From Clostridia bacterium (lineage in GTDB: Bacteria; Bacillota; Clostridia; UMGS1883): a DNA stretch of 64,000 nt. Positions 8,121-59,029 of this stretch are shown here, in pieces. The DNA is taken from contig JAZRTB010000090.1 of the NCBI GenBank assembly GCA_045651805.1, positions 13,295 to 77,294 of the forward strand. The letters run 5' to 3'. The position numbers and the translations under genes were made by a program. The notes under the pieces were generated by a model. That model had not been told where the DNA came from, made no database searches, and worked only from the letters and a program-made list of their open reading frames with translations. Numbering within the stretch: the stretch's first letter is position 1; each line of letters starts with the position of its first letter.

Positions 8121-8148
8121 TTACCACATAATCGAAATTATGTGGTAA
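8121..8148. repeat. Recombinase core-type site, left copy (TTACCACATAAT-CGAA-ATTATGTGGTAA)
   Basis: It has 12-bp inverted arms around an asymmetric 4-nt centre. The 26 bp at 8123-8148 are the exact reverse complement of 8382-8407. Confidence 0.8.
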
Positions 8149-8180
8149 AAAACAGTTTAACGCTATCTAAATGCTGGCTA

Positions 8181-8209
8181 ATTGTATCATCGAAGACGTT
8201 GTTTGTCAA
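8181..8209 (-). promoter_or_regulatory. Sigma-A-type promoter TTGACA-17-TACAAT inside inverton 1, currently firing toward the TetR operon
   Basis: The reverse complement of 8181-8209 is TTGACAaacaacgtcttcgatgaTACAAT, with an exact 17-nt spacer. Confidence 0.7.
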
Positions 8210-8268
8210 TAGTCTACATACAAAAAAATAGTATTTTAGGCAGAATGACAAAAAAATATATAGACAAA

Positions 8269-8303
8269 CAGACCAATGTTGTTGAAAATTTACCATTGGT
8301 CTG
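8269..8303 (-). terminator. Hairpin with T-rich tail inside inverton 1 (insulator between recombinase read-through and the promoter)
   Basis: 10-bp stem CAGACCAATG/CATTGGTCTG with a 15-nt loop. On the minus strand it is followed by TTTGTCTATATATTTTTTTG. Confidence 0.45.
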
Positions 8304-8381
8304 CTTGTGATGCGTTTTTTTCTTGAGTTGTGACAGTTTATAATGTAATTTAAACAGGATCACTCAACTATTCAATTTTTC

Positions 8382-8407
8382 TTACCACATAATTTCGATT
8401 ATGTGGT
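8382..8407. repeat. Recombinase core-type site, right copy (TTACCACATAAT-TTCG-ATTATGTGGT)
   Basis: It is inverted relative to 8121-8148, and its centre TTCG is the reverse complement of CGAA. It sits 11 bp from the recombinase stop. Confidence 0.8.
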
Positions 8408-8418
8408 TTTTTTGTTTT

Positions 8419-9258
8419 TCAGCAACATAAAAGTCCAAGTTTTTGAATTTGTGCTCTGTGAATTTCTCCCGATTCCATAGTGTAAATTCTTGTTGTATTT
8501 ATACTTGAATGTCCAAGTATATCTGCAAGCCTCACAATATCTTTTTGCATAGCGTAATAAGTTCTTGCAAAAAGGTGTCTGAGATTATGCGGAAAAACTT
8601 TTCTTTTATCAACCCCTGCTTCCTCACATAATTTTTTCATTTCATGAAAAACATTACTTCTGTCAAGAGGAGTTCCGCTCTTGGTAACAAAAATGCTTCC
8701 GCTTGAAATTTTTCTTTCCTTTATATATTGTGTTAATATTTTACAAAGCCTTTCAGGTAAAATAATAATACGCATTTTCCCCTTCAGGTTTATTCGAGCT
8801 TCCCGCTTTACAACTGCATCTACAGTTATAAACTTAAGCTCCGATATACGAATCCCCGTAGAACAGACTGTTTGCATCAGAAAATACAAACGTCTGTTAT
8901 TTTTATTTTTTGCAGTTTCGAGAAGCCTTATATACTCTTTTTTCGAAAGCTCTCTTTCTTTTCTTGCGAAAATTTGCTTTTGAATTTTCAACATTTTCGT
9001 TTTAAGATTATGTCTTCCCTTAAATGAAAAATAACTGTTCAAGGACGAAAGCACGGCGTTCACCCCGGAAGGAGAGTGCTTTTCTTCTAATTCCTTTTTG
9101 TAAATCAATACCAGCGATTTTGTCAGTTTTCGCTCTCCGCACCATTTCAGAAAAACTTCAATATCCCTGACATATTTGTCTACTGTTGCTGCTGACTTTT
9201 CTTCATCAAGAAGATACTGCTTGTAATTGTAAAGTTTGTTTTCAATAGTCCTATTCAA
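8419..9258 (-). CDS. Tyrosine site-specific recombinase (phage-integrase/Xer-like family), 279 aa
   Basis: TTG start. Catalytic motifs are STGIRISEL (Arg), HNLRHLFAR (H-x-x-R) and LGHSSINTTRIYT (His...Tyr). About 70% identical by eye to the 43902..44741 recombinase. Confidence 0.9.
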   Translation of the reverse strand: MNRTIENKLYNYKQYLLDEEKSAATVDKYVRDIEVFLKWCGERKLTKSLVLIYKKELEEKHSPSGVNAVLSSLNSYFSFKGRHNLKTKMLKIQKQIFARKERELSKKEYIRLLETAKNKNNRRLYFLMQTVCSTGIRISELKFITVDAVVKREARINLKGKMRIIILPERLCKILTQYIKERKISSGSIFVTKSGTPLDRSNVFHEMKKLCEEAGVDKRKVFPHNLRHLFARTYYAMQKDIVRLADILGHSSINTTRIYTMESGEIHRAQIQKLGLLCC

Positions 9259-9373
9259 TAATTCTCAACTCCTCGCTATTATTTTATCACCTATTTTCTT
9301 TTTTACCATATCTTGTTCTATTTTTTTGCCTGTCCTCATACTTATAAAACAGGTTTAAGTAAGGAGGAATCTT

Positions 9374-40273: not shown

Positions 40274-43200
40274 TTAGTCGTGAAGGTCTGTGTTAGCAAG
40301 AGCAAGAGGTGTGATACCGTCTGCTGCTACTACAAAGAGCTTAATCTGGTCATAAGCGTCTGTTTTGTTGGGATGTGTATATCCTGAAAGATCCTTTACA
40401 AAACCTATTGCTGCATCATAGCGGCTACCTGTATCTTTTGTTACTGCGAAGTCAATAACTTCTGCAGTTACAAGCTTTTCGTCAAGGTATCTTGCAACGA
40501 TAAGCTTTTCTGTACCTGTTGCACCTGAAATTGCAGCACCATTGAGGCAATTTTCTGTACCGAGAGAAAGTTCACGGATTGCAACGGGAGCAAGCTTTCT
40601 TGTAAATGTCTTAGATTCAGAGTAACCATTCTTTGCAGCAGTAATTGTAACTTCTGCCTCTGTGGGGCTTGTTACGTTAATAGCTGTTACTGTACTGTCA
40701 CCAACTTTATATGTGAGTGCGGGGCTGTCTTCCATAACCTTGTAACCTGCGGGATTGTTTGCGAGGTCGCTTTCATCCTTATCGATTGTAGTACCGTCAG
40801 TCCATGTAAGGCTGATAGTCTTAGACTGGAGAGTTCCGTTTGAAAGAACAGGGTGAAGATGCTCTGCCGCATAAAGAACAAGTGCTGCATTAAGCGCTGC
40901 ATTTACTTCGATAACGTTATCATCATCATAATCCTTGACTGAAAGATTATCTGCATATAAAACGCCTGTGCCACTGTGTTCGTAGAGAATATGTCTTACT
41001 GAACCGCCTGTTCTTTTCGTAACTATTGCTGCATTCAGAACAGGGATTTCATTGATAATGATTCCGTCGATTGATACCTGATAGGTTTCTGAAAGTACGT
41101 TGTAATCTATAAGAAGGTGTGTCCATTCGCCCTTCTTTGCCTTAACGCTTTCAGGCATATCGTACCAAACCACAACATCGCCTTTAACGTTATACTCATA
41201 GCCGTTAACCACAGGATTTGTTGTTGAAAGACCAACCTTGCCTGTGTTATAGTTAACGTTAATTATTATACCACGTGCACCTGCAGAAGTTGTTACTACA
41301 AAACGCGGAGAACCTGTAGAACTGCTATCATATTTGAAATCTGTTTCAATTACAAATCTTTCTTTACGACTACCGTCGCCGTATTCTGTATGTGCAATAG
41401 TTGCTTTAGTTCCAACAGCACTGTCAAGCTTAAGTACGTTTCCGTGTGCAACATCTTCATCTGCAACGATTTCATATTTTGCCCCTTCAGGAAGAGTGTA
41501 GTCAGTGAAATCATAAGCATAGTGAAGTGCTGTAGCTATTGAAGTTACATCACTAATTACCACGGGGAACACAACTGTATCACTTGCACTGCCTGCTGTG
41601 ATTGTAGCTGTCATATTAACAGTAACATTTTCGCCATAAGGTGCAAGCTTTGCTACTGTACCATCGTTTGAAATGTAAGCTGTGTTGCTTGATGCCCAGT
41701 TAACTGCAGCACCATATGTAGCAGGATCGTAGTCAGCATAACCGTTGTCAAGGTCAAGCACAGCACCAATTGCTGAAGCTTCACCGATGTTTGACTTTTC
41801 AATAAGCTCCTTATAGAAAGCTACCTTGTCTGCACCAGAAAGTGTGGAAATAACAGAATTAAGAGACTGTGTTGTATATACGTTTATATCATCCACATAA
41901 ATTGTTGCGCCTGATGAACGGTCAGCAAGATAGAATGAAAGGCTTGTAATGCTGTCAAGGCTTGCAAGACCGATACCAACAGTGCTTGTTCCAATCTGGT
42001 TTCCGTTCAAATAATGCTTAGCTGTTTTATTTGCAACATCTATAACAATCTTGAAGTTTGCATAGTTTGCACTGTTTGTATCGTAAGCTATTTTATCAGT
42101 ATTGTTTACGCCATGCCAACCATTTCCTGCAGAGCCACCATTATATGAGTTATTTCTTCTTATCTCACCACCGTAGTTAATGAACTCGGCTATTTCAGCT
42201 CCATTAACCTTGAAACCGTAGTTTGTAACATTGCCGGTACCGGCAGTACTATGATTCTCTGTTCTGAGCTTGAATTCCATTATAAGCTCTTCTGCGTTTG
42301 TAAGAGAAGGCAATGTTTTGAAATTATATGTTGCATATGTCTTCATACTACCACTGTATGTGAAAGAACCAACCTTATTGCCTGCCTCTGTCACTACAGT
42401 ACCGGAACCACCGCTTTCAATGGTGAAGTCACTAACCGAGCCAACTTTATCAAAGTCAACAGTCTCACTCTGACCTGTGATTGCAAGAGGAAGAATTGTT
42501 ACATTGTATGATTTTGAAACGCTTTCCTCGCCAACCTGAAGTGTACCTGTGATTGTAGCTGTTGCTACATCAAGAACAGGACGCTTAACTGTACCGTCAG
42601 CAGCAATAGCGGGATTTGTTGATGTCCAGCTAAGGGTTACGTCAGCGGGAAGGTTCTCTGCTGTGAACTTAAGGTTTGTTGTAAGTGCACTAAGGCTTCC
42701 GCCGTTTGCAACATAAGCTTCATCAAGAAGTGATGAGTAGCTAGCAAGCTTCTCTGCAGGTGTTGCAGATGCAAGTGCTTCTTCATCAGAAACTTCCTGA
42801 TATACAACGAAGTCATCTACATCAAATGTAGCCGTACAATTATCTGTTGCGTTAGTGAAGTAGAAGGATGTGATTTTAACATAACCACCCTCGGGAATTC
42901 CGTCTGCACCTGCAAAATCTACAAGTGTTTTAGCTGAGAGGGCACCTGTTGCAAGTGTCCATATCTGACCTGTCTGGGGGTCATACTTAAAGTCGATATC
43001 CTTACCTGCTGTGAAGTAGCTGCTTGAAAATCCGCTTGTAGAATTAACTCTTGCAAAAGAAGAAGAAGAGAACGCCTTATAGCTTGTTCCGTCAGCGTTA
43101 TATACACCACCGTTAAGTCTGATGTCCGCACCATATGAAGCAAGGTCTGTGAAATTGTCAACATCAAACTTAATGCTTACAGGCTTGGTGTAATCAATAG

Positions 43201-43684
43201 TTGAAGGCATTGAGTATGTGATGTTGGTACGTCCCTGACTTGTTTCGCCTACATGAGTAGCACCGATAACAACATTGAACTTACCGTCAACGATTGAAGA
43301 AGGAGTGTTTGTGCCCCTCACTTGTATTGTCCAACCGGTTGCCTCTTTAGAGAAATCGTTAGCGTGAAGCACATTAGTTGTTTTTGCCTTTACAGTAACA
43401 TTAACTGCTTCTCCTCCGTTGATTGTGAGTGTTACAGTTGCATCGTCAAAAATGGGACGAGTAACAACACCTGTGTTTGAAATAATAGCTTCGTTAGAAG
43501 ACATTATCTCATCATTTTCGCCAAGCACGAGATTGCTTGTAACGAACTTTGCAGGCTGACCGTTAGCGATATCTTCAAAAGTTACCGCCAATGCGGGAGC
43601 CTCAGTTTCCTCTGCCATTACAGTGAATGCGCACATAGAAAGTGCCATAATCATTGCAAGACAGAGTGCCATGAGTTTTTTCAT
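40274..43684 (-). CDS. Giant secreted surface protein, paralogue L (1136 aa)
   Basis: Signal peptide MKKLMALCLAMIMALSMCAFTVMA. The first ~100 aa are nearly identical to the 44912 gene. Small Ig-like modules repeat (L.F....LP..V.LSW.S.N..I..DGTV.RP). The C-terminal ~75-aa module is shared with the paralogues. Confidence 0.9.
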   Translation of the reverse strand: MKKLMALCLAMIMALSMCAFTVMAEETEAPALAVTFEDIANGQPAKFVTSNLVLGENDEIMSSNEAIISNTGVVTRPIFDDATVTLTINGGEAVNVTVKAKTTNVLHANDFSKEATGWTIQVRGTNTPSSIVDGKFNVVIGATHVGETSQGRTNITYSMPSTIDYTKPVSIKFDVDNFTDLASYGADIRLNGGVYNADGTSYKAFSSSSFARVNSTSGFSSSYFTAGKDIDFKYDPQTGQIWTLATGALSAKTLVDFAGADGIPEGGYVKITSFYFTNATDNCTATFDVDDFVVYQEVSDEEALASATPAEKLASYSSLLDEAYVANGGSLSALTTNLKFTAENLPADVTLSWTSTNPAIAADGTVKRPVLDVATATITGTLQVGEESVSKSYNVTILPLAITGQSETVDFDKVGSVSDFTIESGGSGTVVTEAGNKVGSFTYSGSMKTYATYNFKTLPSLTNAEELIMEFKLRTENHSTAGTGNVTNYGFKVNGAEIAEFINYGGEIRRNNSYNGGSAGNGWHGVNNTDKIAYDTNSANYANFKIVIDVANKTAKHYLNGNQIGTSTVGIGLASLDSITSLSFYLADRSSGATIYVDDINVYTTQSLNSVISTLSGADKVAFYKELIEKSNIGEASAIGAVLDLDNGYADYDPATYGAAVNWASSNTAYISNDGTVAKLAPYGENVTVNMTATITAGSASDTVVFPVVISDVTSIATALHYAYDFTDYTLPEGAKYEIVADEDVAHGNVLKLDSAVGTKATIAHTEYGDGSRKERFVIETDFKYDSSSTGSPRFVVTTSAGARGIIINVNYNTGKVGLSTTNPVVNGYEYNVKGDVVVWYDMPESVKAKKGEWTHLLIDYNVLSETYQVSIDGIIINEIPVLNAAIVTKRTGGSVRHILYEHSGTGVLYADNLSVKDYDDDNVIEVNAALNAALVLYAAEHLHPVLSNGTLQSKTISLTWTDGTTIDKDESDLANNPAGYKVMEDSPALTYKVGDSTVTAINVTSPTEAEVTITAAKNGYSESKTFTRKLAPVAIRELSLGTENCLNGAAISGATGTEKLIVARYLDEKLVTAEVIDFAVTKDTGSRYDAAIGFVKDLSGYTHPNKTDAYDQIKLFVVAADGITPLALANTDLHD

Positions 43685-43763
43685 AGTGTTTTCCTCCTAA
43701 ATAAAAATTTTTTATAGTTAAATTAAATTAAATTTTCAAAGTACAGTGCGTAAAAATGTCTGT

Positions 43764-43795
43764 TTTACCACATAATTTGCATTATGTGGTAGAGA
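43764..43795. repeat. Recombinase core-type site A (TTTACCACATAAT-TTGC-ATTATGTGGTAGAGA)
   Basis: 32 bp, the exact reverse complement of 44795-44826. It lies in the 5' leader of paralogue L. Confidence 0.85.
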
Positions 43796-43822
43796 CAAGT
43801 CCACCTATAATTACACATGAAT

Positions 43823-43851
43823 AGTATAACTCTGTTTTCTAAATTTGTCAA
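43823..43851 (-). promoter_or_regulatory. Sigma-A-type promoter TTGACA-17-TATACT inside inverton 2, currently firing into paralogue L
   Basis: The reverse complement reads TTGACAaatttagaaaacagagtTATACT. Its -10 box lies ~30 bp from site A. Confidence 0.7.
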
Positions 43852-43901
43852 TACAAAAAGGGAAATATTTTTTACAAAAATGTTAAATTGCGGAACTTTT
43901 T

Positions 43902-44741
43902 TCAGCATTGCAGAAGTCCCAGCATCTGAAGCTGTTTTCGGTGCTCCGCACCTGATTCAATAGTATATATTCTTGTTGTGTTTATGCTTGTGTGTCCAAG
44001 CAAATCAGCAAGACGCACAATATCTTTTTGCAGCGAATAAAAAGTCCTTGCAAAAAGATGCCTGAAATTATGCGGAAAAACCTTTTTCTTTGATACCCCC
44101 GCATTTTCGCACAAAGTTTTGAGCATTTTCCAAATATTTGACCTGTCAAGGGGATTCCCGCTTTTTGTTACAAAAACACTGCCTTTTACAAGTTTTTCTT
44201 CCTTTATATATTGTACAAGCATTTTGCACAACTGTTCGGGAAGAATGACAACGCGCATTTTTCCTTTGCATCGTATTATTGCCTGCCGTGCTTTTACTGC
44301 CCCTACTGTAATATATTTAAGTTCAGATACTCTAATACCTGTTGAACAAATTGTCTGCATCAAAAGCCATAATTTTTTATTTCCGCTTTCAAGAGCTGCT
44401 GAAAGAAGTTTGTTATATTCTTCTTTTGTCAGTTCTTTTTCTTTGTCGGAAAAGATTTGTTTTTGTATTTTCAGCGTTTTAACCCGACAATCATTCCACC
44501 CCATAAATTCTAAAAAACAGTTAATTGATGAAATCATAGAATTAACGCTTCGGGGAGCATAGTTTTGCGAAATATGATTTTTGTAATCAACAACAGTTTC
44601 TTTTGTAACTTTTCTTTTTTTCAACCATTCAAAAAAAGAAAGAACATCTCTTGAGTATTTTTCAATAGTAACAGTTGATTTTTCCTCCGCGTAAAGATAA
44701 CTGCGAAAATTTGTAATCAATTGTAAAGTTATTTCCGGCAT
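43902..44741 (-). CDS. Tyrosine site-specific recombinase, 279 aa, encoded inside the invertible cassette
   Basis: STGIRVSEL, HNFRHLFAR and LGHTSINTTRIYT motifs. The start is trimmed to ATG 44741 (MPEITLQL; GAGAGGAA RBS), giving the same 279-aa length as the 8419..9258 paralogue. The 316-aa track ORF would read through site B. Confidence 0.9.
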   Translation of the reverse strand: MPEITLQLITNFRSYLYAEEKSTVTIEKYSRDVLSFFEWLKKRKVTKETVVDYKNHISQNYAPRSVNSMISSINCFLEFMGWNDCRVKTLKIQKQIFSDKEKELTKEEYNKLLSAALESGNKKLWLLMQTICSTGIRVSELKYITVGAVKARQAIIRCKGKMRVVILPEQLCKMLVQYIKEEKLVKGSVFVTKSGNPLDRSNIWKMLKTLCENAGVSKKKVFPHNFRHLFARTFYSLQKDIVRLADLLGHTSINTTRIYTIESGAEHRKQLQMLGLLQC

Positions 44742-44794
44742 AGAACACATTCCTCTCGTTTTCTTTTTATTATAACCCAAACCATCTGACAAAT

Positions 44795-44826
44795 TCTCTA
44801 CCACATAATGCAAATTATGTGGTAAA
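44795..44826. repeat. Recombinase core-type site B (inverted copy of site A; centre GCAA)
   Basis: TCTCTACCACATAATGCAAATTATGTGGTAAA, in the 5' leader of paralogue R. Confidence 0.85.
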
Positions 44827-44911
44827 CGGAGTTTTTTCCTATTATAATACATAAAATCGAAATTTAATTAAATTAATTATATAACAAAATATTTTTAAGG
44901 AGGAAAACACT

Positions 44912-47383
44912 ATGAAAAAACTCATGGCGCTCTGTCTTGCTATGTTAATGGCACTTTCAATGGTATCATTTTCAGTAATGGCAGAGGAAACTGAGGCTCA
45001 CGCAGTGGCGGTAACTTTTGAAGATATCGCTAACGGTCAGCCTGCAAAGTTCGTTACAGGCAATCTCGTGCTTGGCGAAAATGATGAAATAAAGTCTTCT
45101 AACGAAGCTATTATTTCAAACACAGGTGTTGTTACACGTCCCCTTTTTGAGGATGCAACAGTAGCAATCTCAATTAACGGAGGAGAAGCTGTTGAAGTTA
45201 CTGTAAAGTCACAGATAGTAGATGTGAAATACTATAATGATTTTACTACAGACGATGCAGGAACAGGAACTTCAACAAGAACATTCCCTTCTTATGAGGG
45301 TTTCTCTGTATCAACAGCAGCAGGAACAGAAACAACTATCCAGGATGGCGTGGTTAAGGTGGATATCAAAGCCGACTACGAAAAAGGTGTAAAAGACCAC
45401 AGAACAAATTTCTACACCAAAATTCCAAGTTTTAGCTCATCAAAGCCTGTAGTAATTCAATTTGATGTTGATAACATAGCAAACATCAAGGGGTCTTCCG
45501 CAGAAATAAGACCAACAATTTATGCTTATCCTACAAATGGCGGATCGCGAGTTCACTTGGGCACAATTCAGTTTGCAAAACTTACAGCAACAGGATTTGG
45601 TTCATCAGGATTTTGTTCGGGCGATAGTATCCCCGTCAGCAAATCAGTGGAAATTCGTTATATCCCGACAACCGGTGAAATATGGCTTAACGGAAAGAAG
45701 TGCTCTAAAAACCTTTTAACCTTGAAAGAAGGCGACTATGAATACGTACAATTAACAGGGTTAACTATTTGTTGTGCCGGAAGTGATTGTTTCGCCCAGT
45801 TCGATATGGACAATTACGTAGTATATCAAGAAGATTCCAAAGATGAAGCGATCTTAAAAGTTACTCCGGAACAACGAAAGGAATATTTGGAAACTTTCCT
45901 TACCCCTGAAGTTTTTGCAAACGGTCAGAGCCTTGCATCCGTTTCTTCAAACCTGACATTCTCAACAGGTCTTGATATGGAAGCCCTTGGTGCAAGCCTT
46001 GTATGGACAACAAGCGATCCTTCTGTAATTGAAGCTAACGGCACAATTCATCCTAAACAGAATACTTCTGTTAACGCAGTTGTGCAGGGAACTCTTACTT
46101 TCGGTGAAGAAACAATAACAACCAAACCTTTTAACATCAAGCTTGCTCCTGCCGGAACAGTTGAATGTACAGCAGCAAAATTCAACTGGGACTTCGAAGA
46201 TGTAGAAGTTGGTGCTACCTCTTCCACAACAACTCAGAATTGCTATTCGGGCGGTAAAAAAGGCATTTATTTCAGCGGAGGAAGCCATGAATTTTTCAAT
46301 GATTCCGAAAGAGGTATGATGCTTAAATCCACAAACCCCAATATAATCCAATTTTCTGCAGGGCAGCGTGGTCCCGGATATAACAAGAGATATGTGTTTG
46401 GATTTGATTACAAATTTGAACTCAATGACAATGCAACATGGAGTACTTTTTCTACCTATATGCGAGGTAACGGTAGCCAGCAAGTCGGTCTTTCCTATAC
46501 GAATGCCGATTTAACTGTTGGCGATAAGACGACTGCTTACGGTAACGCTACTGCTGATAAGGTAGATGCATTATTTGTTCACAAAGTCCCCTGCTATGCT
46601 GAAATAACCAGACCCGGTGTTTGGCATCATATAGACATAGACTTTAATTCCACAAAGAATGTTTACACAATCTACGTTGATGACAACAAGATAAATGAAA
46701 TTCCGGGAAGTTCAGCTAATGGTGTGGGTTATGTTGCTTATTGGATGCACACCCAGCTTGGTAATATGAAAACCTTCTATATGGACAACATGTATGTTAA
46801 TGAATACACTGATTCAAATGTTGTAAAGGCGGATGCTGCACTCAGAAGAGCAGTATATGATGCAGCTGCTCGTGAATCAGGTCAGAATGGTTTGACCGGT
46901 CCTTACAGAACAATCAACAGAAAAGACCTCTCTTCAGTTATAACAAGCACAACCATTCCTACTCCTCAGACGGATTCTAACGGTGCAACTCTTACTTGGA
47001 AGGTTAATGGCGAGCCTCATACTGAAACTACTTATACCGCACCATCATCACCCCAAACAGTTACATTTGAGGTAACTGCTACTTCTGGTGACGTGAGCTA
47101 CTCACAAACTTTCACAAACAGATTTGCTCCTGTTGAAATTGCTGACTATACTTTAGACGAAAGAAACGTTAAAACAGTTACAATAGAAGGCGATTACGAA
47201 GGAAAAAGACTTGTGATAGCAAAATATTCTGCTAATGACGGACGTCTTCTGCTTGTAAAATCAATTGATATTACAAGCAGTGTAGTTGAAGTCGCTGACG
47301 AAAATATTAACGATGTTGGTTGTATAATTAAGTATTTTATATACGACAAAGGATTGTTAGTTCCCTATGCTTTTGGAAGATAA
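44912..47383 (+). CDS. Giant secreted surface protein, paralogue R (823 aa)
   Basis: Signal peptide MKKLMALCLAMLMALSMVSFSVMA. The 5' ~300 nt are ~90% identical to paralogue L on the opposite strand. The RBS context AGGAGGAAAACACT-ATG is identical. Confidence 0.9.
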   Translation: MKKLMALCLAMLMALSMVSFSVMAEETEAHAVAVTFEDIANGQPAKFVTGNLVLGENDEIKSSNEAIISNTGVVTRPLFEDATVAISINGGEAVEVTVKSQIVDVKYYNDFTTDDAGTGTSTRTFPSYEGFSVSTAAGTETTIQDGVVKVDIKADYEKGVKDHRTNFYTKIPSFSSSKPVVIQFDVDNIANIKGSSAEIRPTIYAYPTNGGSRVHLGTIQFAKLTATGFGSSGFCSGDSIPVSKSVEIRYIPTTGEIWLNGKKCSKNLLTLKEGDYEYVQLTGLTICCAGSDCFAQFDMDNYVVYQEDSKDEAILKVTPEQRKEYLETFLTPEVFANGQSLASVSSNLTFSTGLDMEALGASLVWTTSDPSVIEANGTIHPKQNTSVNAVVQGTLTFGEETITTKPFNIKLAPAGTVECTAAKFNWDFEDVEVGATSSTTTQNCYSGGKKGIYFSGGSHEFFNDSERGMMLKSTNPNIIQFSAGQRGPGYNKRYVFGFDYKFELNDNATWSTFSTYMRGNGSQQVGLSYTNADLTVGDKTTAYGNATADKVDALFVHKVPCYAEITRPGVWHHIDIDFNSTKNVYTIYVDDNKINEIPGSSANGVGYVAYWMHTQLGNMKTFYMDNMYVNEYTDSNVVKADAALRRAVYDAAARESGQNGLTGPYRTINRKDLSSVITSTTIPTPQTDSNGATLTWKVNGEPHTETTYTAPSSPQTVTFEVTATSGDVSYSQTFTNRFAPVEIADYTLDERNVKTVTIEGDYEGKRLVIAKYSANDGRLLLVKSIDITSSVVEVADENINDVGCIIKYFIYDKGLLVPYAFGR

Positions 47384-47753: not shown

Positions 47754-50700
47754 TCAGCCGTTTAAGTCGGCATTTTTAAATGTTATGGGTGAAATGCCTT
47801 TATCGCCTATAACGAATACCTTAAGTGCATCTACATCTGCATTTTTCGCAGGTGCAACAAAGCCTGCAAGCTTAAGAATACCTGTTTCAGCACTATAGTT
47901 TTCATTGTCTTTAAGGCTGATAATATTTGTGGAAACAAGCTTCTTGCCGTTATACTGTGCGATTACAACCTTATCTGTTTCAGCATTTACGCCTTCAAGC
48001 CATACACCGTTAAGAGCAGCTGTGCTTGCTGCAAGTCCGCGGATAGACGCAGGAGCAACTCTTCTTCTGAAGGTCTTTGTCTCTGTGATGCCGTCCTTTG
48101 TTGCAGTTACTGTAACTTCAACAACCTGCGGATAATCAACATTAACTGCTGTTGCATCCACGCCGTTAATCTTCCATGAGATTTCGGGACCGTCTGTTAC
48201 ATAAGTGTATGTAGAAACGTTAGAAGGCTTGATTGAGCCATTCTCTTCAACATCTCTGTTAAACGCATCGGCTGCTATATTCCAGCTTCTGCCGATTGTC
48301 ATTGAAGGAAGCTCGCAGTTTGTAAGAACGGGTTTGATATAGCTTGAACCGAAGTCGATAAGTGCCGCATTAAGTGCCGCATTTACTTCTGATTCGGTGC
48401 TGTTTGTGAACTTACGGATAGAAACGTTATCCACCCAAAGTTCGCCCTTGTTACTACATTCAAGTGAGATACCTCTTACAGAGCCACCACCGTTTTTAGT
48501 AGTTTTCATATTAGCCTGAAGCATGGGAAGCTCGGTATAAAGCTTGCCGTCAATATAGAGAACGAATGTCTGTGAAAGTGCATTGAAATCAACTGTTACG
48601 TTAATCCACTCGCCCTCTTTTTCCAAAAGCTCGGAATCCATCTGGAGGTAAACAGTTTTTGCGCTGTTAGCCTTAAGCTTTGATCCATCGGCTTCTGCTT
48701 CGGGAAGTGTTGTGGTAACGGCTACCTTATTTGTTACGAAGTTAAACATAACAGAAACACCGTTGTAAGCCGCAATAGTCTTTATCACGATACCGCCGCT
48801 GGAAGCATCGTTTCCGTTAACGTACTTGACATCTGCAGAAACAACCGCTCTGCCCTTCCAGTCGCCATAGCTGATAATACCGATATTATCAGATGATGTG
48901 TGTTTGCCGACTTCGGCAGTTGAAAGGTAAAGAACCTTACCGTGTGACGCATCTTCGTCGTCAACATAAGTTGCCTTACCTGCAGAAACAGTTGTGTCAG
49001 AGAAGTCTGACGAAGAAAGAAGCTGTGTTCCGTCGGGTGCTGTCATTGTGAAAGCTACCGTGTCGCTTGCCGCACCTGCGGAGATTGTCGCAGTCATTGT
49101 AACTTCATCTTTGGTAAGGAATGATGCTGATTTAACAACTTCACCGTCATTTGAAATGTATTCGGGTGCAGATGATTCCCACGCGATGCTTACGCCTATG
49201 GCGTCAAGGTCGTAATCCGCATATCCGTTATCAAGGTCAAGCACGTCGCCAATAGCACTAACCGTACCGATTGAAGATTTTTCAACAAAGCCCTTGAAAA
49301 GTGCTACCTTTTCTTCTGCAGGAAGTGTAGCGATAGCATCATCAAGAGTGTTTTCTGCGTAAAGCGTGATATTATCAATATCAAATGCACCGCTTGCAGA
49401 TCTCCAGTCAACGTAAAGGTTAGCAGATGTAATATTTTCCAAATCAACCGAAGGACAAGTTGCGGTTGATATTGTTTTACCATCTATAATATAGCTTACA
49501 ACTTTTGTTAAATTATCAATTTTAATCTGAAGATTAACAAATTCAGAGGGCGGTTTAATATAACCGGTAGTAGAACCACCATACCAAGCCTGTCCTGTTG
49601 CCCAGTCCTGACCATGAAGCATAGTTGAACGGTTTATAAATTCAGCTACCTCTGTGTTGTTAATACGAAGACCTACATTGATAACATTTGCCATGGGTGT
49701 TGAAGTCTTATAATCAAAGGACATTATGTAGTAGCGTCCACTTCCTAAAGAAGGAGCATTATCGAAGGAATAAGTAATTACCTTCGATGTTCCATTTGAA
49801 AGAGAACTTGAAACTCGTGCGTAGCTATTGCCGTTGTCAACAACATTCACTACACTTGCTTCGCTGCTTGAAACATTCCAACCGGGTTCCGCAATAGCCG
49901 CACCGTCTGAAAGATCATAGCTGTCGAAATCAACAGTTTCACTTCTGCCGGAAAGCGAGAGAGGAAGAACTGTTACATCGTATGTTTTTACCATATCTTC
50001 CGCACCGTCAACTGAAAGTGTGCCTGTGATTTGTGCTGTCTTTTCATTTTCAAGGTCACGCTTTATTGTACCGTCTTCTGCGATAACATCAGCATCTGAA
50101 GTTTCCCATGAAATGCTTATACCTGCAGGAAGTTCTTCATCGGCTGTGAATTTAAGGTTGTTTCCAACGCCTTTAAAGCTACTGCCATCGGTTACATATT
50201 CCTCTGAAAGGAGATATGAATAATTTGCAAGCATTTCTTCGGGAGTTGCTGTAAGAAGTGCTTCTTCAGCAGGAATTTCTTCATACACGACGAAGCTATC
50301 GATTGCGAAATTACCTGTACATCCGCCACCTGCATTAGTGAACATAATTGCTGTCATTACTGTGCTTGCAACTTCATCAGATGTGTGACCTTCACTCATA
50401 TAGAAGCTTGAATCTGTGCTGTCAAAAAGATTCTTCGCACATTTTACACCGTTGCCCCAGAATTCGCCTGTCTGGGGATTGTACTTGATTTCCACATTAG
50501 CTTTTCTGCTGGCACCCATCCAGTTGTTACCAAATCCGGCATTACCGGGATACATTCTTGCAACTGTTGCAGTATCATAATAACCAATTCTTGTACCTTC
50601 TGCATCATATCTGTTACCTGAAATACGGATATCAATACCTGATGAAGTAACTTCTGTGATGTTAACAAGGTCAAAACGGATTACAACAATCTTATCACCT

Positions 50701-51158
50701 GAAGCCTGGGGAAGAGTCTTTCTGATGTGTGTTCTTGCCACAGCTGTAGGTCCGATAATTATGTTGAAAACACCGTTTTCAAATACTGAAGGTTCATTAC
50801 CTTCAGGAGCGCTGAAACTCCAGCCGTCATATTCATCCGCTGAAAAATCCTCCGCAACTTTAATATCGGCAGTCTTTGCCTTTACAACTACATCGAAGGG
50901 GACACCGCCATCGATTGTAAGAGTAACTGTTGCATCCTCATAAATGGGGCGTGTTACGTCACCGTCAAGAGCGATAACCGCCTCGTTTGAAGATGTGATT
51001 GTGTGACTGCCGAGATCAAGGTCTTCTGTCACAAACATTGAGGGCTGACCGTTTGCAATTTCAGCAAAGTCAACCGCTGTTTCTTCTGCCATTACTGAAA
51101 ATGATACCATTGAAAGCGCCATTAACAACGAAAGGCAGAGTGCCATAATTTTTTTCAT
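47754..51158 (-). CDS. Giant secreted surface protein, paralogue 3 (1134 aa)
   Basis: Signal peptide MKKIMALCLSLLMALSMVSFSVMA. It is collinear with paralogue L over its whole length at a lower identity. Confidence 0.9.
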   Translation of the reverse strand: MKKIMALCLSLLMALSMVSFSVMAEETAVDFAEIANGQPSMFVTEDLDLGSHTITSSNEAVIALDGDVTRPIYEDATVTLTIDGGVPFDVVVKAKTADIKVAEDFSADEYDGWSFSAPEGNEPSVFENGVFNIIIGPTAVARTHIRKTLPQASGDKIVVIRFDLVNITEVTSSGIDIRISGNRYDAEGTRIGYYDTATVARMYPGNAGFGNNWMGASRKANVEIKYNPQTGEFWGNGVKCAKNLFDSTDSSFYMSEGHTSDEVASTVMTAIMFTNAGGGCTGNFAIDSFVVYEEIPAEEALLTATPEEMLANYSYLLSEEYVTDGSSFKGVGNNLKFTADEELPAGISISWETSDADVIAEDGTIKRDLENEKTAQITGTLSVDGAEDMVKTYDVTVLPLSLSGRSETVDFDSYDLSDGAAIAEPGWNVSSSEASVVNVVDNGNSYARVSSSLSNGTSKVITYSFDNAPSLGSGRYYIMSFDYKTSTPMANVINVGLRINNTEVAEFINRSTMLHGQDWATGQAWYGGSTTGYIKPPSEFVNLQIKIDNLTKVVSYIIDGKTISTATCPSVDLENITSANLYVDWRSASGAFDIDNITLYAENTLDDAIATLPAEEKVALFKGFVEKSSIGTVSAIGDVLDLDNGYADYDLDAIGVSIAWESSAPEYISNDGEVVKSASFLTKDEVTMTATISAGAASDTVAFTMTAPDGTQLLSSSDFSDTTVSAGKATYVDDEDASHGKVLYLSTAEVGKHTSSDNIGIISYGDWKGRAVVSADVKYVNGNDASSGGIVIKTIAAYNGVSVMFNFVTNKVAVTTTLPEAEADGSKLKANSAKTVYLQMDSELLEKEGEWINVTVDFNALSQTFVLYIDGKLYTELPMLQANMKTTKNGGGSVRGISLECSNKGELWVDNVSIRKFTNSTESEVNAALNAALIDFGSSYIKPVLTNCELPSMTIGRSWNIAADAFNRDVEENGSIKPSNVSTYTYVTDGPEISWKINGVDATAVNVDYPQVVEVTVTATKDGITETKTFRRRVAPASIRGLAASTAALNGVWLEGVNAETDKVVIAQYNGKKLVSTNIISLKDNENYSAETGILKLAGFVAPAKNADVDALKVFVIGDKGISPITFKNADLNG

Positions 51159-51220: not shown

Positions 51221-51249
51221 AGTTTACCTTTTTTTCGCAACTTTGTCAA
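51221..51249 (-). promoter_or_regulatory. Promoter TTGACA-17-TAAACT of paralogue 3 (fixed, not IR-bounded)
   Basis: The reverse complement reads TTGACAaagttgcgaaaaaaaggTAAACT. It is followed by a degenerate TTACCA-type hairpin at 51193-51216. Confidence 0.6.
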
Positions 51250-51479: not shown

Positions 51480-54269
51480 TTACTTAAGCACAACAAGAAT
51501 ATCGTTAAGATGGTTTCTCTGACGCCATCCGTAAATCATTATGCTTCCGTCGCCAATGTCGATATTACCTGCCTTATCAACACTGCCTATTGTGGGAAGC
51601 TTAGTTCTGTCGCCCTTTGTAACCTCACCTGTTCTTGTATCAAATATTGTTACATAGGATGAAGATGTGATTGTTTCAACAAAGTATTCACCGTTTGCAT
51701 AAATACCAAGTGTGCCGTCTGTACCTGAAATGGGATAACCGATTACACGACCCCATGTTGTGTTAGCATAATCTGCTGCTGAATAAGGACCGAAGCCTTT
51801 ACGAACCTGTTCTTCAGAACGAAGGGGACTCATTACAAGCATAGCCTTCGATACTTCCTGCTTTTCGTTGTCAAACTGGATGACGAACACGTCACCGGGC
51901 TTTATACCTGAATAAGTATTGAAACCGGGCTTAATGTTACCTTCTGCATCTTTACCATCGCTATTATTGAATTCCTCTATAGCTGCTGCAAACACACCGG
52001 GGAAATGCTCACGGAATGTCCAGACGTTGTTCTTCCAGTAGCCTGTTACCTGCTCTCTTTCTTCGCCGAATTCGTCAATAACTGTCTTTGAGCTGATAAC
52101 GGTGAAGGGCTTGTCGTCAAAGCTTGTCGTTGTGGTAGCACAAACCATTGCACCTACTGCCCAGTTCTGGTCAGCATCGTAAAGAGCACCTGTAAGAGAT
52201 ACAAGCTGGAACTTGCTGTAAGGAATAACCTTTACCTTTGTTTCATCGGTTGTTACAATACTGCCGGGAGTTTCAATAAGGAATATCTTTGAGTTTTTGT
52301 CAAGAATATATCCTGAAGTACCGAGGTTTTTGCTTGAATAACCGGAGTATGTTGAAAAGCTTCCTGTATAAAGCTTATGGAACTTTGTTTCGTCAAATCC
52401 GTTGGGAGCTTCAGCCTCTGTTATAGTAGTATTGTCATATTCAAGCTGTGTGAATTCACCCTTTGAATTGATTTTGATTCTGATAAGCTGAGGAACGAAT
52501 GCACCTGATGTATTGTAGAGGTCCGCGCTGTTAACAACTGCATCACCGTCATTCTCGTGAACACCTGCAGAGTCAATAACTGTGAAATTCTTTGCCGCCT
52601 TAACGGTTACTGCATCGCCCTGCTCGTTAACGATTTTTACAGCCTTCTTTGTACCGCCAAGTTTATCTGTTGAATCACTGCCTACTGCAAGAAGGTATGC
52701 ATATTCCGCACGGTTCTGTGTGCCGAGGAAGAATGCCGCCTCACCTGCTACGTTTACATATACATCGTATTTAGCACCTGTTTCGGGGGCTTTAAGGCTT
52801 GAAGATGCATCATTCATCTTTTCCATATAGAATGAGCCTACACGGTATGTGCTCTCACCTGTTGTAACGAACATTGAGCCGTCTTCTTCAGTAGTGATAC
52901 TGTCAACAACCATACTTGTCTTTACATTTGACACATGAATGATAAGCTTTGTGAAATCCTTTGACTGATATACAGAAAGAAGGCTTTCATACTTTATGTC
53001 TGCAAGAGGAATTTCCTTACCTTCTGCATCGTAAACGTGGAATACTTCATATTCATTGTAAAGGATAGGTTCGTCGTAGCTGCTATAGAAAGCACCTGTA
53101 ACGGTATCAACTGTCTTTACAAGATAATCATAGAATACGTCCGCAATAATTGTTTCGTAAACCTTGTCGCCGTTGGCATCAATAAGCTTAAGTGTACCTT
53201 CAGGAATCTTAAGTGTTTCGCCTACAAAATTGGTGTAAGCGGCACCGTTATAGATAAAGTCTGCATATACGCTGATTTTAGCATCTGTTTCTTTACCGCT
53301 TTTGTTCTTATAAACGATGTTTGACTTTGTGAACTTGGAAGAATCCTTAACAAGGTCATAAGCGTTAATTACAAGTACATCGTTCCTTGCTTCATCGGCA
53401 TAAGCGTGAAGCAACACCTTCGGTTCTGTATCACGGTAGTATGCAACAACATTCATACCGATAAGGTCTGTAAACTTTTCCTGAATGCCTGTCATAAGCA
53501 CGCCGTTTACAATAGCATTGCCCTTACCTGCCATACTTTTTCCGGAAAGAGCTGTCTGACCGTTGTCAGTCATAACGCCCTTTACGGGGTAAATGTTATG
53601 ATAAACGCTGAGGAGGTTACGGTCTTCACTTGTTGTGTAAGTTGCATATTCCTCACTTACCGCGTTCATTTCGGGGATTTTTGCTTCAAGTGCCGCATCA
53701 ATAAGCATTACCGCATCGTAAAGAGTAAGGTCACGGTCATAGTTTGAAGCACCGCCACGGAGAAGACCAAGGTCTATTGCCTTTTTAAGGTAACCCTGAT
53801 AGTAACCACCGCTTACCTCTGCAAGGTCTTTATAACCAAGACCCGATACAAGCACCTTTATTGCCTGTGCATAAGTAACCTTGTTGTCGGGCTTGAATTC
53901 AAAAGCGCTTACACCAACCATAAGTCCCATCTTCTTGAGTGCAACTATTGCATTGGCATTTGTTGTAAGTTCTTTTACGTCAACATATGTGTTTTCGCTG
54001 AATGTTGCAGGATAGAAGTGATTACCCATCACCTTTTCCATAATTCCTGCAAATTCACTTCTTGAGATTGTATCTTCTGCTTTTTTATCAAATTCAGGGA
54101 AAACGCCAAGGTCAAGAAGCATTTCACGCTTGCTTTCAAAGGAGGCAAGCTCTGACTCTGAATAAAGAGGTGCCACAGGGGCTTCTTCTGCAGAGCCAAT
54201 CATTGTACCCATCTGGGTAAACAGCAACACAAGTACTGTTATGATTGCGATTAATCGTTTATTACGCAT
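51480..54269 (-). CDS. S-layer-homology (SLH) domain surface protein, 929 aa
   Basis: Signal peptide, then N-terminal SLH-like repeats (..ISRSEFAGIMEKV..; YVDV....NAIVALKKMGLMVG...FKPDNKVTYAQAIKVLV). Confidence 0.8.
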   Translation of the reverse strand: MRNKRLIAIITVLVLLFTQMGTMIGSAEEAPVAPLYSESELASFESKREMLLDLGVFPEFDKKAEDTISRSEFAGIMEKVMGNHFYPATFSENTYVDVKELTTNANAIVALKKMGLMVGVSAFEFKPDNKVTYAQAIKVLVSGLGYKDLAEVSGGYYQGYLKKAIDLGLLRGGASNYDRDLTLYDAVMLIDAALEAKIPEMNAVSEEYATYTTSEDRNLLSVYHNIYPVKGVMTDNGQTALSGKSMAGKGNAIVNGVLMTGIQEKFTDLIGMNVVAYYRDTEPKVLLHAYADEARNDVLVINAYDLVKDSSKFTKSNIVYKNKSGKETDAKISVYADFIYNGAAYTNFVGETLKIPEGTLKLIDANGDKVYETIIADVFYDYLVKTVDTVTGAFYSSYDEPILYNEYEVFHVYDAEGKEIPLADIKYESLLSVYQSKDFTKLIIHVSNVKTSMVVDSITTEEDGSMFVTTGESTYRVGSFYMEKMNDASSSLKAPETGAKYDVYVNVAGEAAFFLGTQNRAEYAYLLAVGSDSTDKLGGTKKAVKIVNEQGDAVTVKAAKNFTVIDSAGVHENDGDAVVNSADLYNTSGAFVPQLIRIKINSKGEFTQLEYDNTTITEAEAPNGFDETKFHKLYTGSFSTYSGYSSKNLGTSGYILDKNSKIFLIETPGSIVTTDETKVKVIPYSKFQLVSLTGALYDADQNWAVGAMVCATTTTSFDDKPFTVISSKTVIDEFGEEREQVTGYWKNNVWTFREHFPGVFAAAIEEFNNSDGKDAEGNIKPGFNTYSGIKPGDVFVIQFDNEKQEVSKAMLVMSPLRSEEQVRKGFGPYSAADYANTTWGRVIGYPISGTDGTLGIYANGEYFVETITSSSYVTIFDTRTGEVTKGDRTKLPTIGSVDKAGNIDIGDGSIMIYGWRQRNHLNDILVVLK

Positions 54270-54293
54270 ATTATCACCCTTGCCTTTCCTTTC

Positions 54294-56069: not shown

Positions 56070-56075
56070 TATTAC

Positions 56076-58997: not shown

Positions 58998-59029
58998 AAT
59001 TTAACCTCCTTTTCAGATTTTACTTTTAA

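Follow-up and report, generated by a model that had tools for sequence, protein, structure and literature searches.

To our knowledge, phase variation by promoter inversion has been examined extensively in Bacteroides, E. coli and C. difficile, and barely at all in the uncultured Oscillospiraceae and the other Clostridia that dominate the human gut. In the Hin/hix system of Salmonella, an invertible segment of ~1 kb carries the recombinase gene and, near one end, an outward promoter, and the two flip together (see also PMC9368917). The sap locus of Campylobacter fetus is said, after work by Dworkin and Blaser in 1996-97, to hold a single promoter on an invertible segment between opposed paralogues with conserved 5' regions. 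Inversion of a short regulatory segment by tyrosine recombinases, with surface structures under its control, is known for fimS of E. coli, the target of FimB and FimE (see PMC9993118), and for RecV of C. difficile (see PMC7446863 and PMC5386303). The Vpma locus of Mycoplasma agalactiae encodes Xer1, a Xer-like tyrosine recombinase that moves a single promoter among paralogous surface-protein genes by way of short sites in their 5' leaders, according to the account of the locus in PMC2268961. In Ureaplasma parvum, an inversion at short inverted repeats alternates the expression of two neighbouring genes, UU172 and UU171 (PMC3047005). Gut Clostridia, including the Oscillospiraceae member Intestinimonas, carry invertons with read-supported flipping, which were found with PhaseFinder-type methods and classed as inverton group 139 and invertase group 35 (PMC11892184). 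In the examples drawn from that study, the repeats are of ~26 bp (14 bp were called in one of two examples) and lie ~205-230 bp apart, beside a tyrosine recombinase gene.

Here we analyze a 64-kb stretch of DNA from an uncultured gut Clostridia bacterium, hereafter the window, in which the segment 43764-44826 is likely to be a promoter cassette that undergoes site-specific inversion, encodes an invertase of its own and toggles two paralogous genes. The positions of its parts are collected in the table below. As in invertons, a pair of inverted repeats brackets a short segment: the repeat search recovered two arms of 32 nt that are 100% complementary and 999 nt apart, as originally predicted. 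Each arm contains a core of the form TACCACATAAT-N4-ATTATGTGGTA, with TTGC as the centre in one arm and GCAA in the other. This pattern has four matches in the window, two per switch for the two switches found there, against 0.00 expected from shuffled sequences. The asymmetric 4-nt centre of the original prediction was recovered as well, but the arms of the core are 11 bp long and not 12 bp, the symmetry breaking down at the 12th position (T in one arm, C in the other). In the leader RNA the core forms a hairpin, which in the present orientation of the left side is extended by GUCU/AGAC and followed by AUUUUU; such a structure might attenuate transcription.

The sole long ORF between the repeats encodes a tyrosine recombinase. 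Its start is the ATG following a GAGAGGAA ribosome-binding site, which gives a protein of 279 aa, while the mechanically called ORF extends to 44852 (316 aa), across the right repeat. Pfam recovers only Phage_integrase (PF00589, 2.4e-28) and an N-terminal SAM-like domain (PF02899, 1.3e-07, residues 9-80), with no serine recombinase (resolvase) domain. Residues R137, K159/K161, H224, R227, H250 and Y259 align to the catalytic residues of XerA (5HXY, 4A8E) and XerD (1A0P), and the protein combines the R-K-H-R-H/W-Y set of the tyrosine recombinase superfamily in its C-terminal domain with the N-terminal SAM-like core-binding domain. Its matches to the NCBIfam Xer-type models stay below the equivalog cut-offs (XerA, 156.7 bits against 220; XerD, 141.2 against 329.6); judged by these scores, the enzyme is Xer-like and not an orthologue of XerC, XerD or XerA. 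Exact-protein look-ups with the 279-aa form, the 316-aa form and P0001 returned no contig, and a genome scan with the recombinase returned 7 loci only. The recombinase of the window's own species is present in one assembly only. The cognate recombinase gene expected near an inverton lies in this case inside the segment, and a paralogue is found 35 kb away beside the second switch.

The other element of the interior is a near-consensus promoter, TTGACA-17-TATACT, the top-scoring site across 43300-45300. As judged by consensus match and conservation, it is predicted to fire outward across the left repeat to a gene. Its -10 hexamer ends 27 nt inside this repeat. Across six aligned cassette-type loci, the -35 sequence TTGACAA does not change, and the -10 hexamer shows a single substitution, in L137 (TATAAT). 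The AT-rich block TTAAnAnTTTTGTnAAAA upstream of the -35 occupies invariant alignment columns (T19-A36) and may act as an UP element or bind a regulator. Promoter scoring found no + strand site of at least 9/12 between the recombinase start and the ATG at 44912; the + strand site TTTACA-16-TATATT at 44185-44212 has a chance-level score and is antisense within the recombinase gene. A TATAAT element ~25 nt upstream of the recombinase ATG, without a good -35, is likely a weak promoter of the recombinase gene itself: GGTTATAAT is kept at this position in L003, L137 and L139, and GCTATAAT in L138.

The promoter faces a gene for a giant secreted protein of 1136 aa with a signal peptide and aBig_2 Ig-like domains, which is predicted to be ON in this assembly. 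The divergent paralogue beyond the right repeat encodes 823 aa and is predicted to be OFF; its product is 69% identical to that of an 817-aa gene in the same position in L002. Both genes start in the identical context AGGAGGAAAACACTATG. Over the first 300 coding nt the two are 90.3% identical, and the homology ends at ~nt 330. Together with part of the leaders, these 5' ends make up a long inverted repeat of 373 nt that is 86% complementary. For the corresponding repeat in L002 and L001, identity between the arms reaches 99% and 95%, respectively, which points to their concerted evolution. The leaders are geometrically equivalent, with a length of ~130 nt for the 1136-aa gene and, after inversion, ~137 nt for the 823-aa gene. 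An Rfam search of the leaders found no known RNA family.

The original prediction had described an interior with nothing but a recombinase gene and one near-consensus outward promoter, no comparable promoter between the recombinase start and the right repeat, and two genes alike in ATG context and over their first ~300 nt. ORF, Pfam and promoter analyses agree with this description. The further claim of a mutually exclusive switch between two antigens does not hold as a closed system. A third paralogue (1134 aa), whose signal peptide and leader are related to those of the other two, has no core site within 3 mismatches and has a fixed promoter (TTGACA-17-TAAACT) homologous to that of the cassette. 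Both promoters start with TTGACAAA, and the fixed one sits downstream of the terminator of an SLH-domain gene. Two proteins of 973 aa are also encoded in the window and are unrelated to each other.

Table. Positions of the cassette, its flanking genes and the second switch in the window.
Feature	Position	Strand	Description
Left (promoter-proximal) inverted repeat	43764..43795		core TACCACATAAT-TTGC-ATTATGTGGTA at 43766-43791; repeat and pattern search
Right (recombinase-5'-proximal) inverted repeat	44795..44826		core with centre GCAA at 44799-44824; repeat and pattern search
Outward sigma-70-type promoter, predicted	43823..43851	-	TTGACA-17-TATACT; 11/12 consensus; now faces 1136-aa gene
Conserved AT-rich block	43869..43886	-	TTAAnAnTTTTGTnAAAA, upstream of -35
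Tyrosine recombinase gene	43902..44741	-	Xer-like, 279 aa, inside invertible segment; PF00589, PF02899
TATAAT -10 element	44769..44774	-	upstream of recombinase ATG; read from sequence
1136-aa secreted giant protein gene	40274..43684	-	signal peptide, aBig_2 Ig-like domains; faces promoter
823-aa divergent paralogue	44912..47383	+	no promoter facing it in present orientation
Long inverted repeat, left arm	43344..43716		part of 5' leader and ~first 110 codons of 1136-aa gene
Long inverted repeat, right arm	44880..45252		part of 5' leader and ~first 110 codons of 823-aa gene
Third paralogue, 1134 aa	47754..51158	-	related signal peptide and leader; without core site
Fixed promoter of third paralogue	51221..51249	-	TTGACA-17-TAAACT; homologous to cassette promoter
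Second, conventional switch on same core	8122..8408		cores 8122-8147 (centre CGAA) and 8383-8408 (TTCG), 235 bp apart
Promoter of second switch	8209->8181	-	TTGACA-17-TACAAT; faces TetR-family gene at 7500-8048
Paralogous tyrosine recombinase gene	8419..9258	-	279 aa, 59% identical to cassette recombinase

The second switch in the window uses the same core in a conventional layout. Its promoter faces a TetR-family gene, and the paralogous recombinase gene lies outside the repeats, with its stop codon 10 nt beyond the right core. We considered the orthologues of this switch with the same CGAA centre (L066, L079 and L093) for a comparison of orientation and set them aside as too divergent.

The core TACCACATAAT-N4-ATTATGTGGTA was found in at least 120 metagenome contigs, largely from human-gut assemblies. 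Among the matches listed, the centres are reverse-complementary within the pair in all 81 of the 81 two-core contigs; these matches contain 34 distinct centres across two-core loci, none of them palindromic. In ~70 of the 81 listed two-core loci, a recombinase homologue of 43-66% identity has its 3' end ~3-170 nt (mostly <100) from a core. All the listed matches are switches with the recombinase outside, and none is a cassette-type locus; the promoter-proximal junction pattern ATAGGT-N11-CTACCACATAAT-N4-ATTATGTGG likewise had 0 matches in the metagenome scan. Sister sites with the same core clearly occur in both orientations. In contigs L031 and L107, the flanks and cores are identical, and the interior of one is the exact reverse complement of the other. 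Identical flanks with exactly inverted interiors are also seen in L022 versus L097 and L130, in L056 versus L111, and in L026, L031 and L083 versus L050, L070 and L107. This indicates that sites of this core class invert in nature.

The cassette layout does not extend beyond a small clade, with recombinase identities of 74-100%. Both cores surround the recombinase gene in L001, L002, L012, L014/L015 and L137; in L138 the core on the 5' side is present and the contig then ends. The setting varies among relatives, with the cassette between divergent paralogues in some and beside a single gene in others. In L137 and L138 it abuts the 3' end of a co-oriented gene, without a divergent paralogue and without the long repeat, which suggests a plain ON/OFF switch there and is a further departure from the mutually exclusive scheme. 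The centre in L001 is altered in both copies, to TTGA/TCAA, a pair that we read as a compensatory change.

We looked for the cassette itself in opposite states and found no contig pair of the same species that differs in this way; L014 and L015 are in the same state. Of two orthologues with 75% identity, L1_1167 is found on the promoter-distal side of the cassette in L001, and L2_1170 on its promoter side in L002; between-species comparisons of orientation such as this are confounded by other rearrangements and by the fast divergence of the giant genes. The cassette is also inverted in L001 with respect to the window, relative to feoAB. We rejected this as proof, since the giant genes are 43-54% identical and the neighbours are rearranged. 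A suggestive trace comes from the Logan contig L003, whose interior is identical to that of the MAG L002 at 1021 of 1021 positions. L003 begins with a 31-mer, CATT+core+A, that joins the right outer flank to the recombinase-5' end and is absent from L002, as might be expected of a flipped junction; a strain with its left flank converted to the right one could also explain it. At only 26 nt, the repeat in L002 would not interrupt a k=31 graph. The Logan contigs L011, L013 and L016, which end at repeats, were discarded, because repeats of at least 30 nt break a k=31 graph regardless of flipping. L139, a SPAdes contig at 3x coverage, covers the interior only and is uninformative on orientation.

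The proposed mechanism is as follows. The 279-aa recombinase would bind the 11-bp arms of both cores, and strand exchange would take place across the asymmetric centre, TTGC in one site and GCAA in the other. As the centres are complementary and the sites inverted, the 999-bp interior would be inverted rather than excised. The only strong interior promoter would fire outward through the core near which it lies. In the assembled state, the gene for the 1136-aa secreted protein would be transcribed through its leader of ~130 nt; in the inverted state, transcription would instead reach the divergent 823-aa gene, whose leader of ~137 nt would have the same ribosome-binding context. Along with the promoter, the recombinase gene would flip too, and its own promoter appears to be weak (-10 only). 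Both recombinases of the window presumably read the same arms, and the differing centres (TTGC and CGAA) would keep the two switches from cross-recombining. The original prediction of a single-promoter toggle is upheld in its components by the catalytic set, the core family seen in both orientations, the co-varying centres, the promoter in six relatives and the equivalent leaders; flipping in this organism, the identity of the acting recombinase, the positions of cleavage and the effect on transcription are what we infer from them.

Other readings of the locus have to be weighed against an active toggle. The cassette could be a former inverton that no longer flips, so that the promoter always drives the 1136-aa gene and the 823-aa gene is silent or uses a weak promoter of its own. 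No cassette-type species has yielded a contig in the opposite state, and the window and L002, which are of different species, share one state, in which the long gene is ON and its 823/817-aa counterpart OFF. A promoter that faces a giant gene in every cassette contig examined is equally what a fixed arrangement would give, and a TGGTAA-17-TATAAT element is present directly outside the right repeat; however, the relatives do not conserve its -10. Loss of flipping is nevertheless unlikely in our view, given the intact recombinase ORF, with its catalytic residues preserved, and the flipped-type junction k-mer in L003. The perfect 32-bp repeat, the centres matched in every cassette relative and the compensatory change in L001 would not be expected without selection for recombination. 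Switching could also proceed, in the manner of C. fetus sap, mainly by RecA-type homologous recombination between the inverted 5' ends of the genes, with the core sites and the recombinase secondary. Inversion across these long arms would equally move the promoter between gene bodies, and their identity here and in the two relatives indicates ongoing exchange or gene conversion. In the same vein, the right gene of L015 turns into left-gene sequence 167 nt outside the core. At 86% identity, however, the arms are a poor substrate for homologous recombination in the window, and the cassette exists in L137 and L138, where the paralogue and the long repeat are missing. Such a route also leaves the conserved dedicated recombinase and the perfect, centre-matched cores around the promoter unexplained, and we regard it as quite unlikely as the main one, although it is compatible with exchange at the core sites.

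At ~1.06 kb, with inverted repeats at its ends and one ORF, the cassette also resembles an insertion sequence, one whose outward promoter activates its neighbour by chance; the varied contexts (between divergent paralogues or at the 3' end of another gene) and the extra cargo of the copy in L011, a HEPN/nucleotidyltransferase pair, agree with mobility. Each of the terminal repeats is, however, a complete two-arm core, as in the promoter-only invertons that lie beside paralogous recombinases, and the enzyme is a Xer-like tyrosine recombinase and not a transposase. The 64-kb window contains one copy, and no direct repeat of the kind left by target-site duplication flanks its ends. In every fully resolved context, moreover (the L138 contig ends earlier), the promoter-proximal flank consists of the leader of a gene for a giant secreted protein of the aBig_2 type. 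We therefore rejected the insertion sequence as a highly improbable reading and retain the invertible cassette as the preferred one.

We tentatively propose, as a possibility rather than the probable course of events, that this cassette is a portable, self-contained two-way toggle derived from an ordinary Clostridia inverton whose distal site, once downstream of the recombinase gene, came to lie on its upstream side. With the distal site there, the enzyme moves together with the promoter and a second gene adjoins the far end; by this one change, an ON/OFF switch would have become a symmetric either/or choice between two giant secreted proteins, with the locus-specific 4-nt centres as addresses that let several switches coexist in a genome and not cross-recombine. 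If the toggle is real, one inversion would swap two large secreted or surface proteins instead of silencing one, which bears on phage and immune evasion. A cassette of ~1 kb with a gene inside may escape inverton searches tuned to short intergenic segments. The invariant 11-bp arms with a locus-specific 4-nt centre matched within the pair amount to a design principle, by which many switches can use related recombinases without scrambling the chromosome and which could serve to build orthogonal inversion switches.

The recombinase and its sites probably belong to the common Clostridia inverton type described as inverton group 139 and invertase group 35, to which they are likened by geometry: in the examples drawn from PMC11892184, the spacing matches that of the second switch and of metagenome relatives such as L006, with ~205 bp between its cores. 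The recombinase of those examples is encoded outside the repeats and described as free of regulation by the inverton, and one downstream gene set is turned ON or OFF; in the cassette, the distal core is on the upstream side of the recombinase gene, and a unit of ~1 kb carries the enzyme and has a gene at both ends. The fimS and RecV recombinases, too, are encoded outside the switch, RecV far away and acting on many sites; they turn one operon ON or OFF, and their repeats are short or imperfect, without the two-arm palindromic core of the cassette. Hin is alike in that the recombinase is carried inside the invertible segment with the promoter. It is, however, a serine recombinase dependent on Fis and an enhancer, whereas the cassette enzyme is a tyrosine recombinase. 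The Hin promoter drives fljBA one way and nothing the other way, the other flagellin being controlled indirectly through the FljA repressor, while the cassette has a structural paralogue at each end. In Vpma/Xer1 of Mycoplasma, with which we group the similar Vsp system of M. bovis and Vsa system of M. pulmonis, the recombinase is encoded next to the locus, each paralogue has its own site and nested inversions shuffle several genes. The cassette is not such a shufflon: it has two sites only, which bracket promoter and recombinase, and the third paralogue lacks a site and is served by a fixed promoter. In the Ureaplasma system, one repeat lies in a coding region and inversion gives chimeric genes, the recombinase is encoded elsewhere and the genes are those of small lipoproteins. 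The sap system of C. fetus is RecA-dependent, with conserved 5' regions of ~600 bp, no dedicated site-specific recombinase and a segment of ~6 kb or more. The original prediction had found no described family for a self-contained cassette of this kind. Its elements do have precedents, in Vpma/Xer1, UU172/UU171, C. fetus sap and Hin; the combination of a tyrosine recombinase inside the segment with a single promoter between paralogues appears to be undescribed.

The cassette is a real feature with the anatomy first described for it. The perfect 32-bp inverted repeats that the original prediction had placed at its ends were recovered by a repeat search of the window and enclose, as claimed, one 279-aa recombinase gene and one near-consensus promoter. 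Both repeat copies hold the quasi-palindrome TACCACATAAT-N4-ATTATGTGGTA: the predicted two arms around a 4-nt centre stand, except that the symmetric arms measure 11 bp rather than 12 bp. This core pattern occurs four times in the 64-kb window, where shuffled sequence gives an expectation of 0.00. The promoter lies within the segment, 27 nt from the left repeat, and points to the start codon of the 1136-aa gene. From the recombinase start to the ATG at 44912, the same promoter scan turned up no plus-strand match of comparable quality, in agreement with the claim that no such promoter faces the 823-aa paralogue in the present orientation. Each flanking gene starts in the context AGGAGGAAAACACTATG, and over the first 300 nt of coding sequence the pair is 90.3% identical, confirming the identical start context and about 90% identity first described; the likeness stops at about nt 330. 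Their 5' ends were recovered in the repeat search as a 373-nt inverted repeat of 86% complementarity.

Coordinates of the cassette, its surroundings and the second switch (window coordinates unless a relative is named)
Feature	Coordinates	Strand	Details
Cassette repeats, left / right	43764-43795 / 44795-44826		32 nt, 100% complementary, 999 nt between arms; centres TTGC / GCAA
Cassette promoter	43851 to 43823	-	TTGACA-17-TATACT; 11/12, top promoter match in 43300-45300
Cassette recombinase gene	43902-44741	-	279 aa; sole gene between repeats
Core hairpin	43745-43800	-	RNA, present orientation
1136-aa gene	40274-43684	-	promoter-facing
823-aa gene	44912-47383	+	divergent paralogue
Homogenised arms, window	43344-43716 / 44880-45252		
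Homogenised arms, L002	7506-7878 / 9021-9393		
Homogenised arms, L001	7663-7879 / 9027-9243		
Third giant aBig_2 paralogue	47754-51158		1134 aa; related signal peptide, part of leader shared
Fixed promoter of third paralogue	51249 to 51221		TTGACA-17-TAAACT; starts TTGACAAA as cassette promoter does
Large genes adjoining switch locus	51480-60619	-	929, 591, 973 and 529 aa
Second-switch cores, left / right	8122-8147 / 8383-8408		centres CGAA / TTCG; 235 bp apart; arms as cassette core
Second-switch promoter	8209 to 8181		TTGACA-17-TACAAT with TG extension; fires across left core to TetR-family gene 7500-8048
Second recombinase	8419-9258		279 aa; 59% identical to cassette recombinase

The mechanical ORF of the cassette recombinase reaches an upstream ATG at 44852 (316 aa), crossing the right repeat. 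Pfam assigns the protein a Phage_integrase domain (2.4e-28) and an N-terminal SAM-like domain, and a Pfam membership test did not place it among serine invertases of the Hin type. Its nearest NCBIfam models are XerA, XerD and XerC, matched well under their equivalog cut-offs, and alignment to the solved XerA and XerD structures shows that the catalytic residues R137, K159/161, H224, R227, H250 and Y259 are kept. The gene has a conserved -10 element without a good -35, which suggests that expression is probably low. Homologues are very numerous: at least 8000 at E <= 1e-20, counting all scored candidates.

A metagenome scan with the pattern CCACATAAT-N4-ATTATGTGG matched at least 120 contigs (L017-L136), many from human-gut assemblies. 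Among the matches listed, 81 loci carry two or more cores, and in all 81 the centres are reverse-complementary within the pair; across the listed loci the 11-bp arms are nearly invariant and 34 different centres occur, none of them palindromic. Tyrosine recombinases require homology in the crossover region, and invariant arms with a pair-matched, locus-specific centre fit this requirement; such centres would also keep different switches of one genome from recombining together. About 70 of the listed loci have a recombinase homologue (43-66% identical) with its 3' end ~3-170 nt, mostly <100 nt, from the first core. Core spacing among the matches listed is ~110-400 bp, with one exception of ~1.05 kb (L073), and none of these loci has the recombinase inside the core pair. 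Contigs L031 and L107, from different samples, are identical through both cores and have interiors that are exact reverse complements. Opposite interiors within near-identical flanks recur in L022 versus L097 and L130, in L056 versus L111, and in L026, L031 and L083 versus L050, L070 and L107. Sites of this core class therefore invert in nature, and the class is a genuine natural inversion substrate. In several conventional switches (L064, L093, L105, L108, L114, L124 and L129) the cores number three: the third is a further direct copy with an unchanged centre, at a distance of 9-89 nt from one of the paired cores. It would give such a switch a choice of two invertible segments, or permit a small deletion.

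The second switch in the window follows the conventional inverton plan: its recombinase gene is outside the core pair, with the stop codon 10 nt past the right core. The cassette departs from this plan only in the place of its distal core, which is upstream of the recombinase gene and not directly downstream. Downstream of the TetR-family gene of the second switch are genes for a small putative hydrophobic protein and a 973-aa secreted protein (3994-6915). Kinship of the latter with the equally long product of 56076-58997 was rejected: the two are unrelated. The left core of the second switch, together with a T-run, was flagged as terminator-like on the transcribed strand.

A recombinase inside the repeats was found only in the closest relatives (74-100% recombinase identity). 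These are the window, a Clostridia MAG (SGB_3154; L001/L004), an uncultured Oscillospiraceae MAG (L002/L005), L012, L014/L015, the repeat-bounded contigs L003, L011 and L013, and L137; L138, with only the recombinase-5' core on its contig, probably belongs here. Across six cassette loci the -35 hexamer is invariant and the -10 hexamer is off at one position in one locus; an AT-rich block upstream and the stretch from the -10 to the core are also conserved. Both copies in L001 have the centre TTGA/TCAA, a compensatory shift. Divergent giant genes lie at both sides of the cassette in the window, L001, L002 and L014/L015. In L137 (2180-3600) and L138 (560-760) the neighbour of the distal core is the 3' end, with terminator, of a co-oriented gene; in this setting flipping would yield simple ON/OFF control, not a toggle. 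The L011 cassette measures 2.0 kb, against 1.2 kb for the otherwise-identical L012 and L013 cassettes; at 96-840 L011 carries a toxin-antitoxin-like HEPN/nucleotidyltransferase pair between distal core and recombinase gene.

We consider it likely that the recombinase inverts the cassette at its cores, which would re-point the single strong promoter to the other gene; the comparative evidence supports this proposed function well. Both states would have leaders of almost the same length (~131 and ~137 nt) and an identical ribosome-binding context, and switching is likely unbiased, since the flanks outside the repeats nearly mirror each other. A switch frozen in one state is an unlikely alternative reading of the locus. 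The window's species is represented by one assembly, and L014 and L015, contigs of one relative, share the same cassette state. Between species, cassette direction relative to feoAB is opposite in L001 and the window, and the orthologues L1_1167 and L2_1170 (75% identity) are promoter-distal in L001 and promoter-proximal in L002; amid other rearrangements, these differences are no more than suggestive of flipping. Most informative is the Logan contig L003 (SRR14307658), which has a 1021-nt interior identical to that of MAG L002 and ends in the unflipped right junction. It starts with a 31-mer (CATT+core+A) joining the right outer flank of L002 to the recombinase-5' interior end: this is the flipped right junction, absent from L002. 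The 26-nt repeat of L002 is below k-1 = 30 for Logan assembly, which uses k = 31, so a population uniformly in the L002 orientation would not be expected to interrupt the graph at this point. The junction is suggestive of a flipped cassette, with the chances about evenly balanced; alternatively, it may come from a strain in which conversion has replaced the left flank by right-flank sequence.

Within a genome, the two divergent genes match each other over part of the leader and roughly 110 initial codons: they are 86% identical there in the window, 95% in L001 and 99% in L002. These homogenised 5' ends differ from genome to genome. Such likeness within and unlikeness between genomes is concerted evolution and indicates gene conversion across the locus. 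The homogenised ends could allow inversion by homologous recombination. That this route, known from C. fetus sap, accounts for most of the switching by way of the 373-bp repeats at the gene ends is quite doubtful; it would be compatible with recombinase-mediated inversion. An insertion-sequence-like mobile element, as which a recombinase gene between inverted repeats might also be read, is highly improbable. Within one species, L015 (2601-2631) departs from L014 (2060-2100): 167 nt outside the core its right-gene coding sequence becomes left-gene sequence, either by gene conversion between the paralogues or because the assembly was joined across the repeat. The promoter-side gene of L014 is interrupted by an in-frame stop near codon 64.

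One reservation about the present orientation is that the core itself may attenuate transcription. In this orientation, its RNA hairpin is lengthened by GUCU/AGAC interior-flank pairing and followed by AUUUUU (fold z-score -3.5, mostly owing to the palindrome), possibly forming an orientation-specific attenuator. The C. difficile cwpV switch is of the terminator type and attenuates transcription.

The proteins of both flanking genes have signal peptides and aBig_2 Ig-like domains, no anchor motif was recognised in them, and SLH-domain proteins are encoded beside them (Pfam). Given the signal peptides, domains and neighbours, they may reasonably be regarded as secreted or surface-located. The closed two-antigen switch of the original prediction did not hold: the third paralogue has its own fixed promoter and, in the pattern search of the window, no core site, making the system 'one constitutive plus two alternating'. 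The row of large genes adjoining the locus, encoding secreted or SLH-domain proteins, looks like a cell-envelope gene neighbourhood.

In the open-access literature subset, our searches met no account of a promoter cassette that bears a tyrosine recombinase and lies between two divergent paralogues. Of most interest are the matching of centres across the whole family and the route by which one step would turn an ON/OFF switch into an either/or switch. The cassette would work like the invertible promoters fimS, Bacteroides capsule and C. difficile RecV. It resembles Salmonella Hin in carrying its recombinase aboard a ~1-kb invertible segment, though the Hin enzyme belongs to the serine recombinases. 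One promoter would serve alternative paralogous surface-protein genes, a feature shared with C. fetus sap, Mycoplasma Vpma/Xer1 (PMC2268961) and Ureaplasma UU172/UU171 (PMC3047005). The nearest likeness is to Clostridia invertons whose flipping was read-supported in a gut defined-community survey (PMC11892184), such as the Clostridium sp. D5 example with 26-bp repeats 205 bp apart. That group is linked statistically to the tyrosine 'invertase group 35', in strains including Clostridium sp. D5 and Intestinimonas (PMC11892184). Compared by geometry alone, the second switch and the metagenome loci agree with these invertons, and the recombinase and sites of the cassette probably belong with them.
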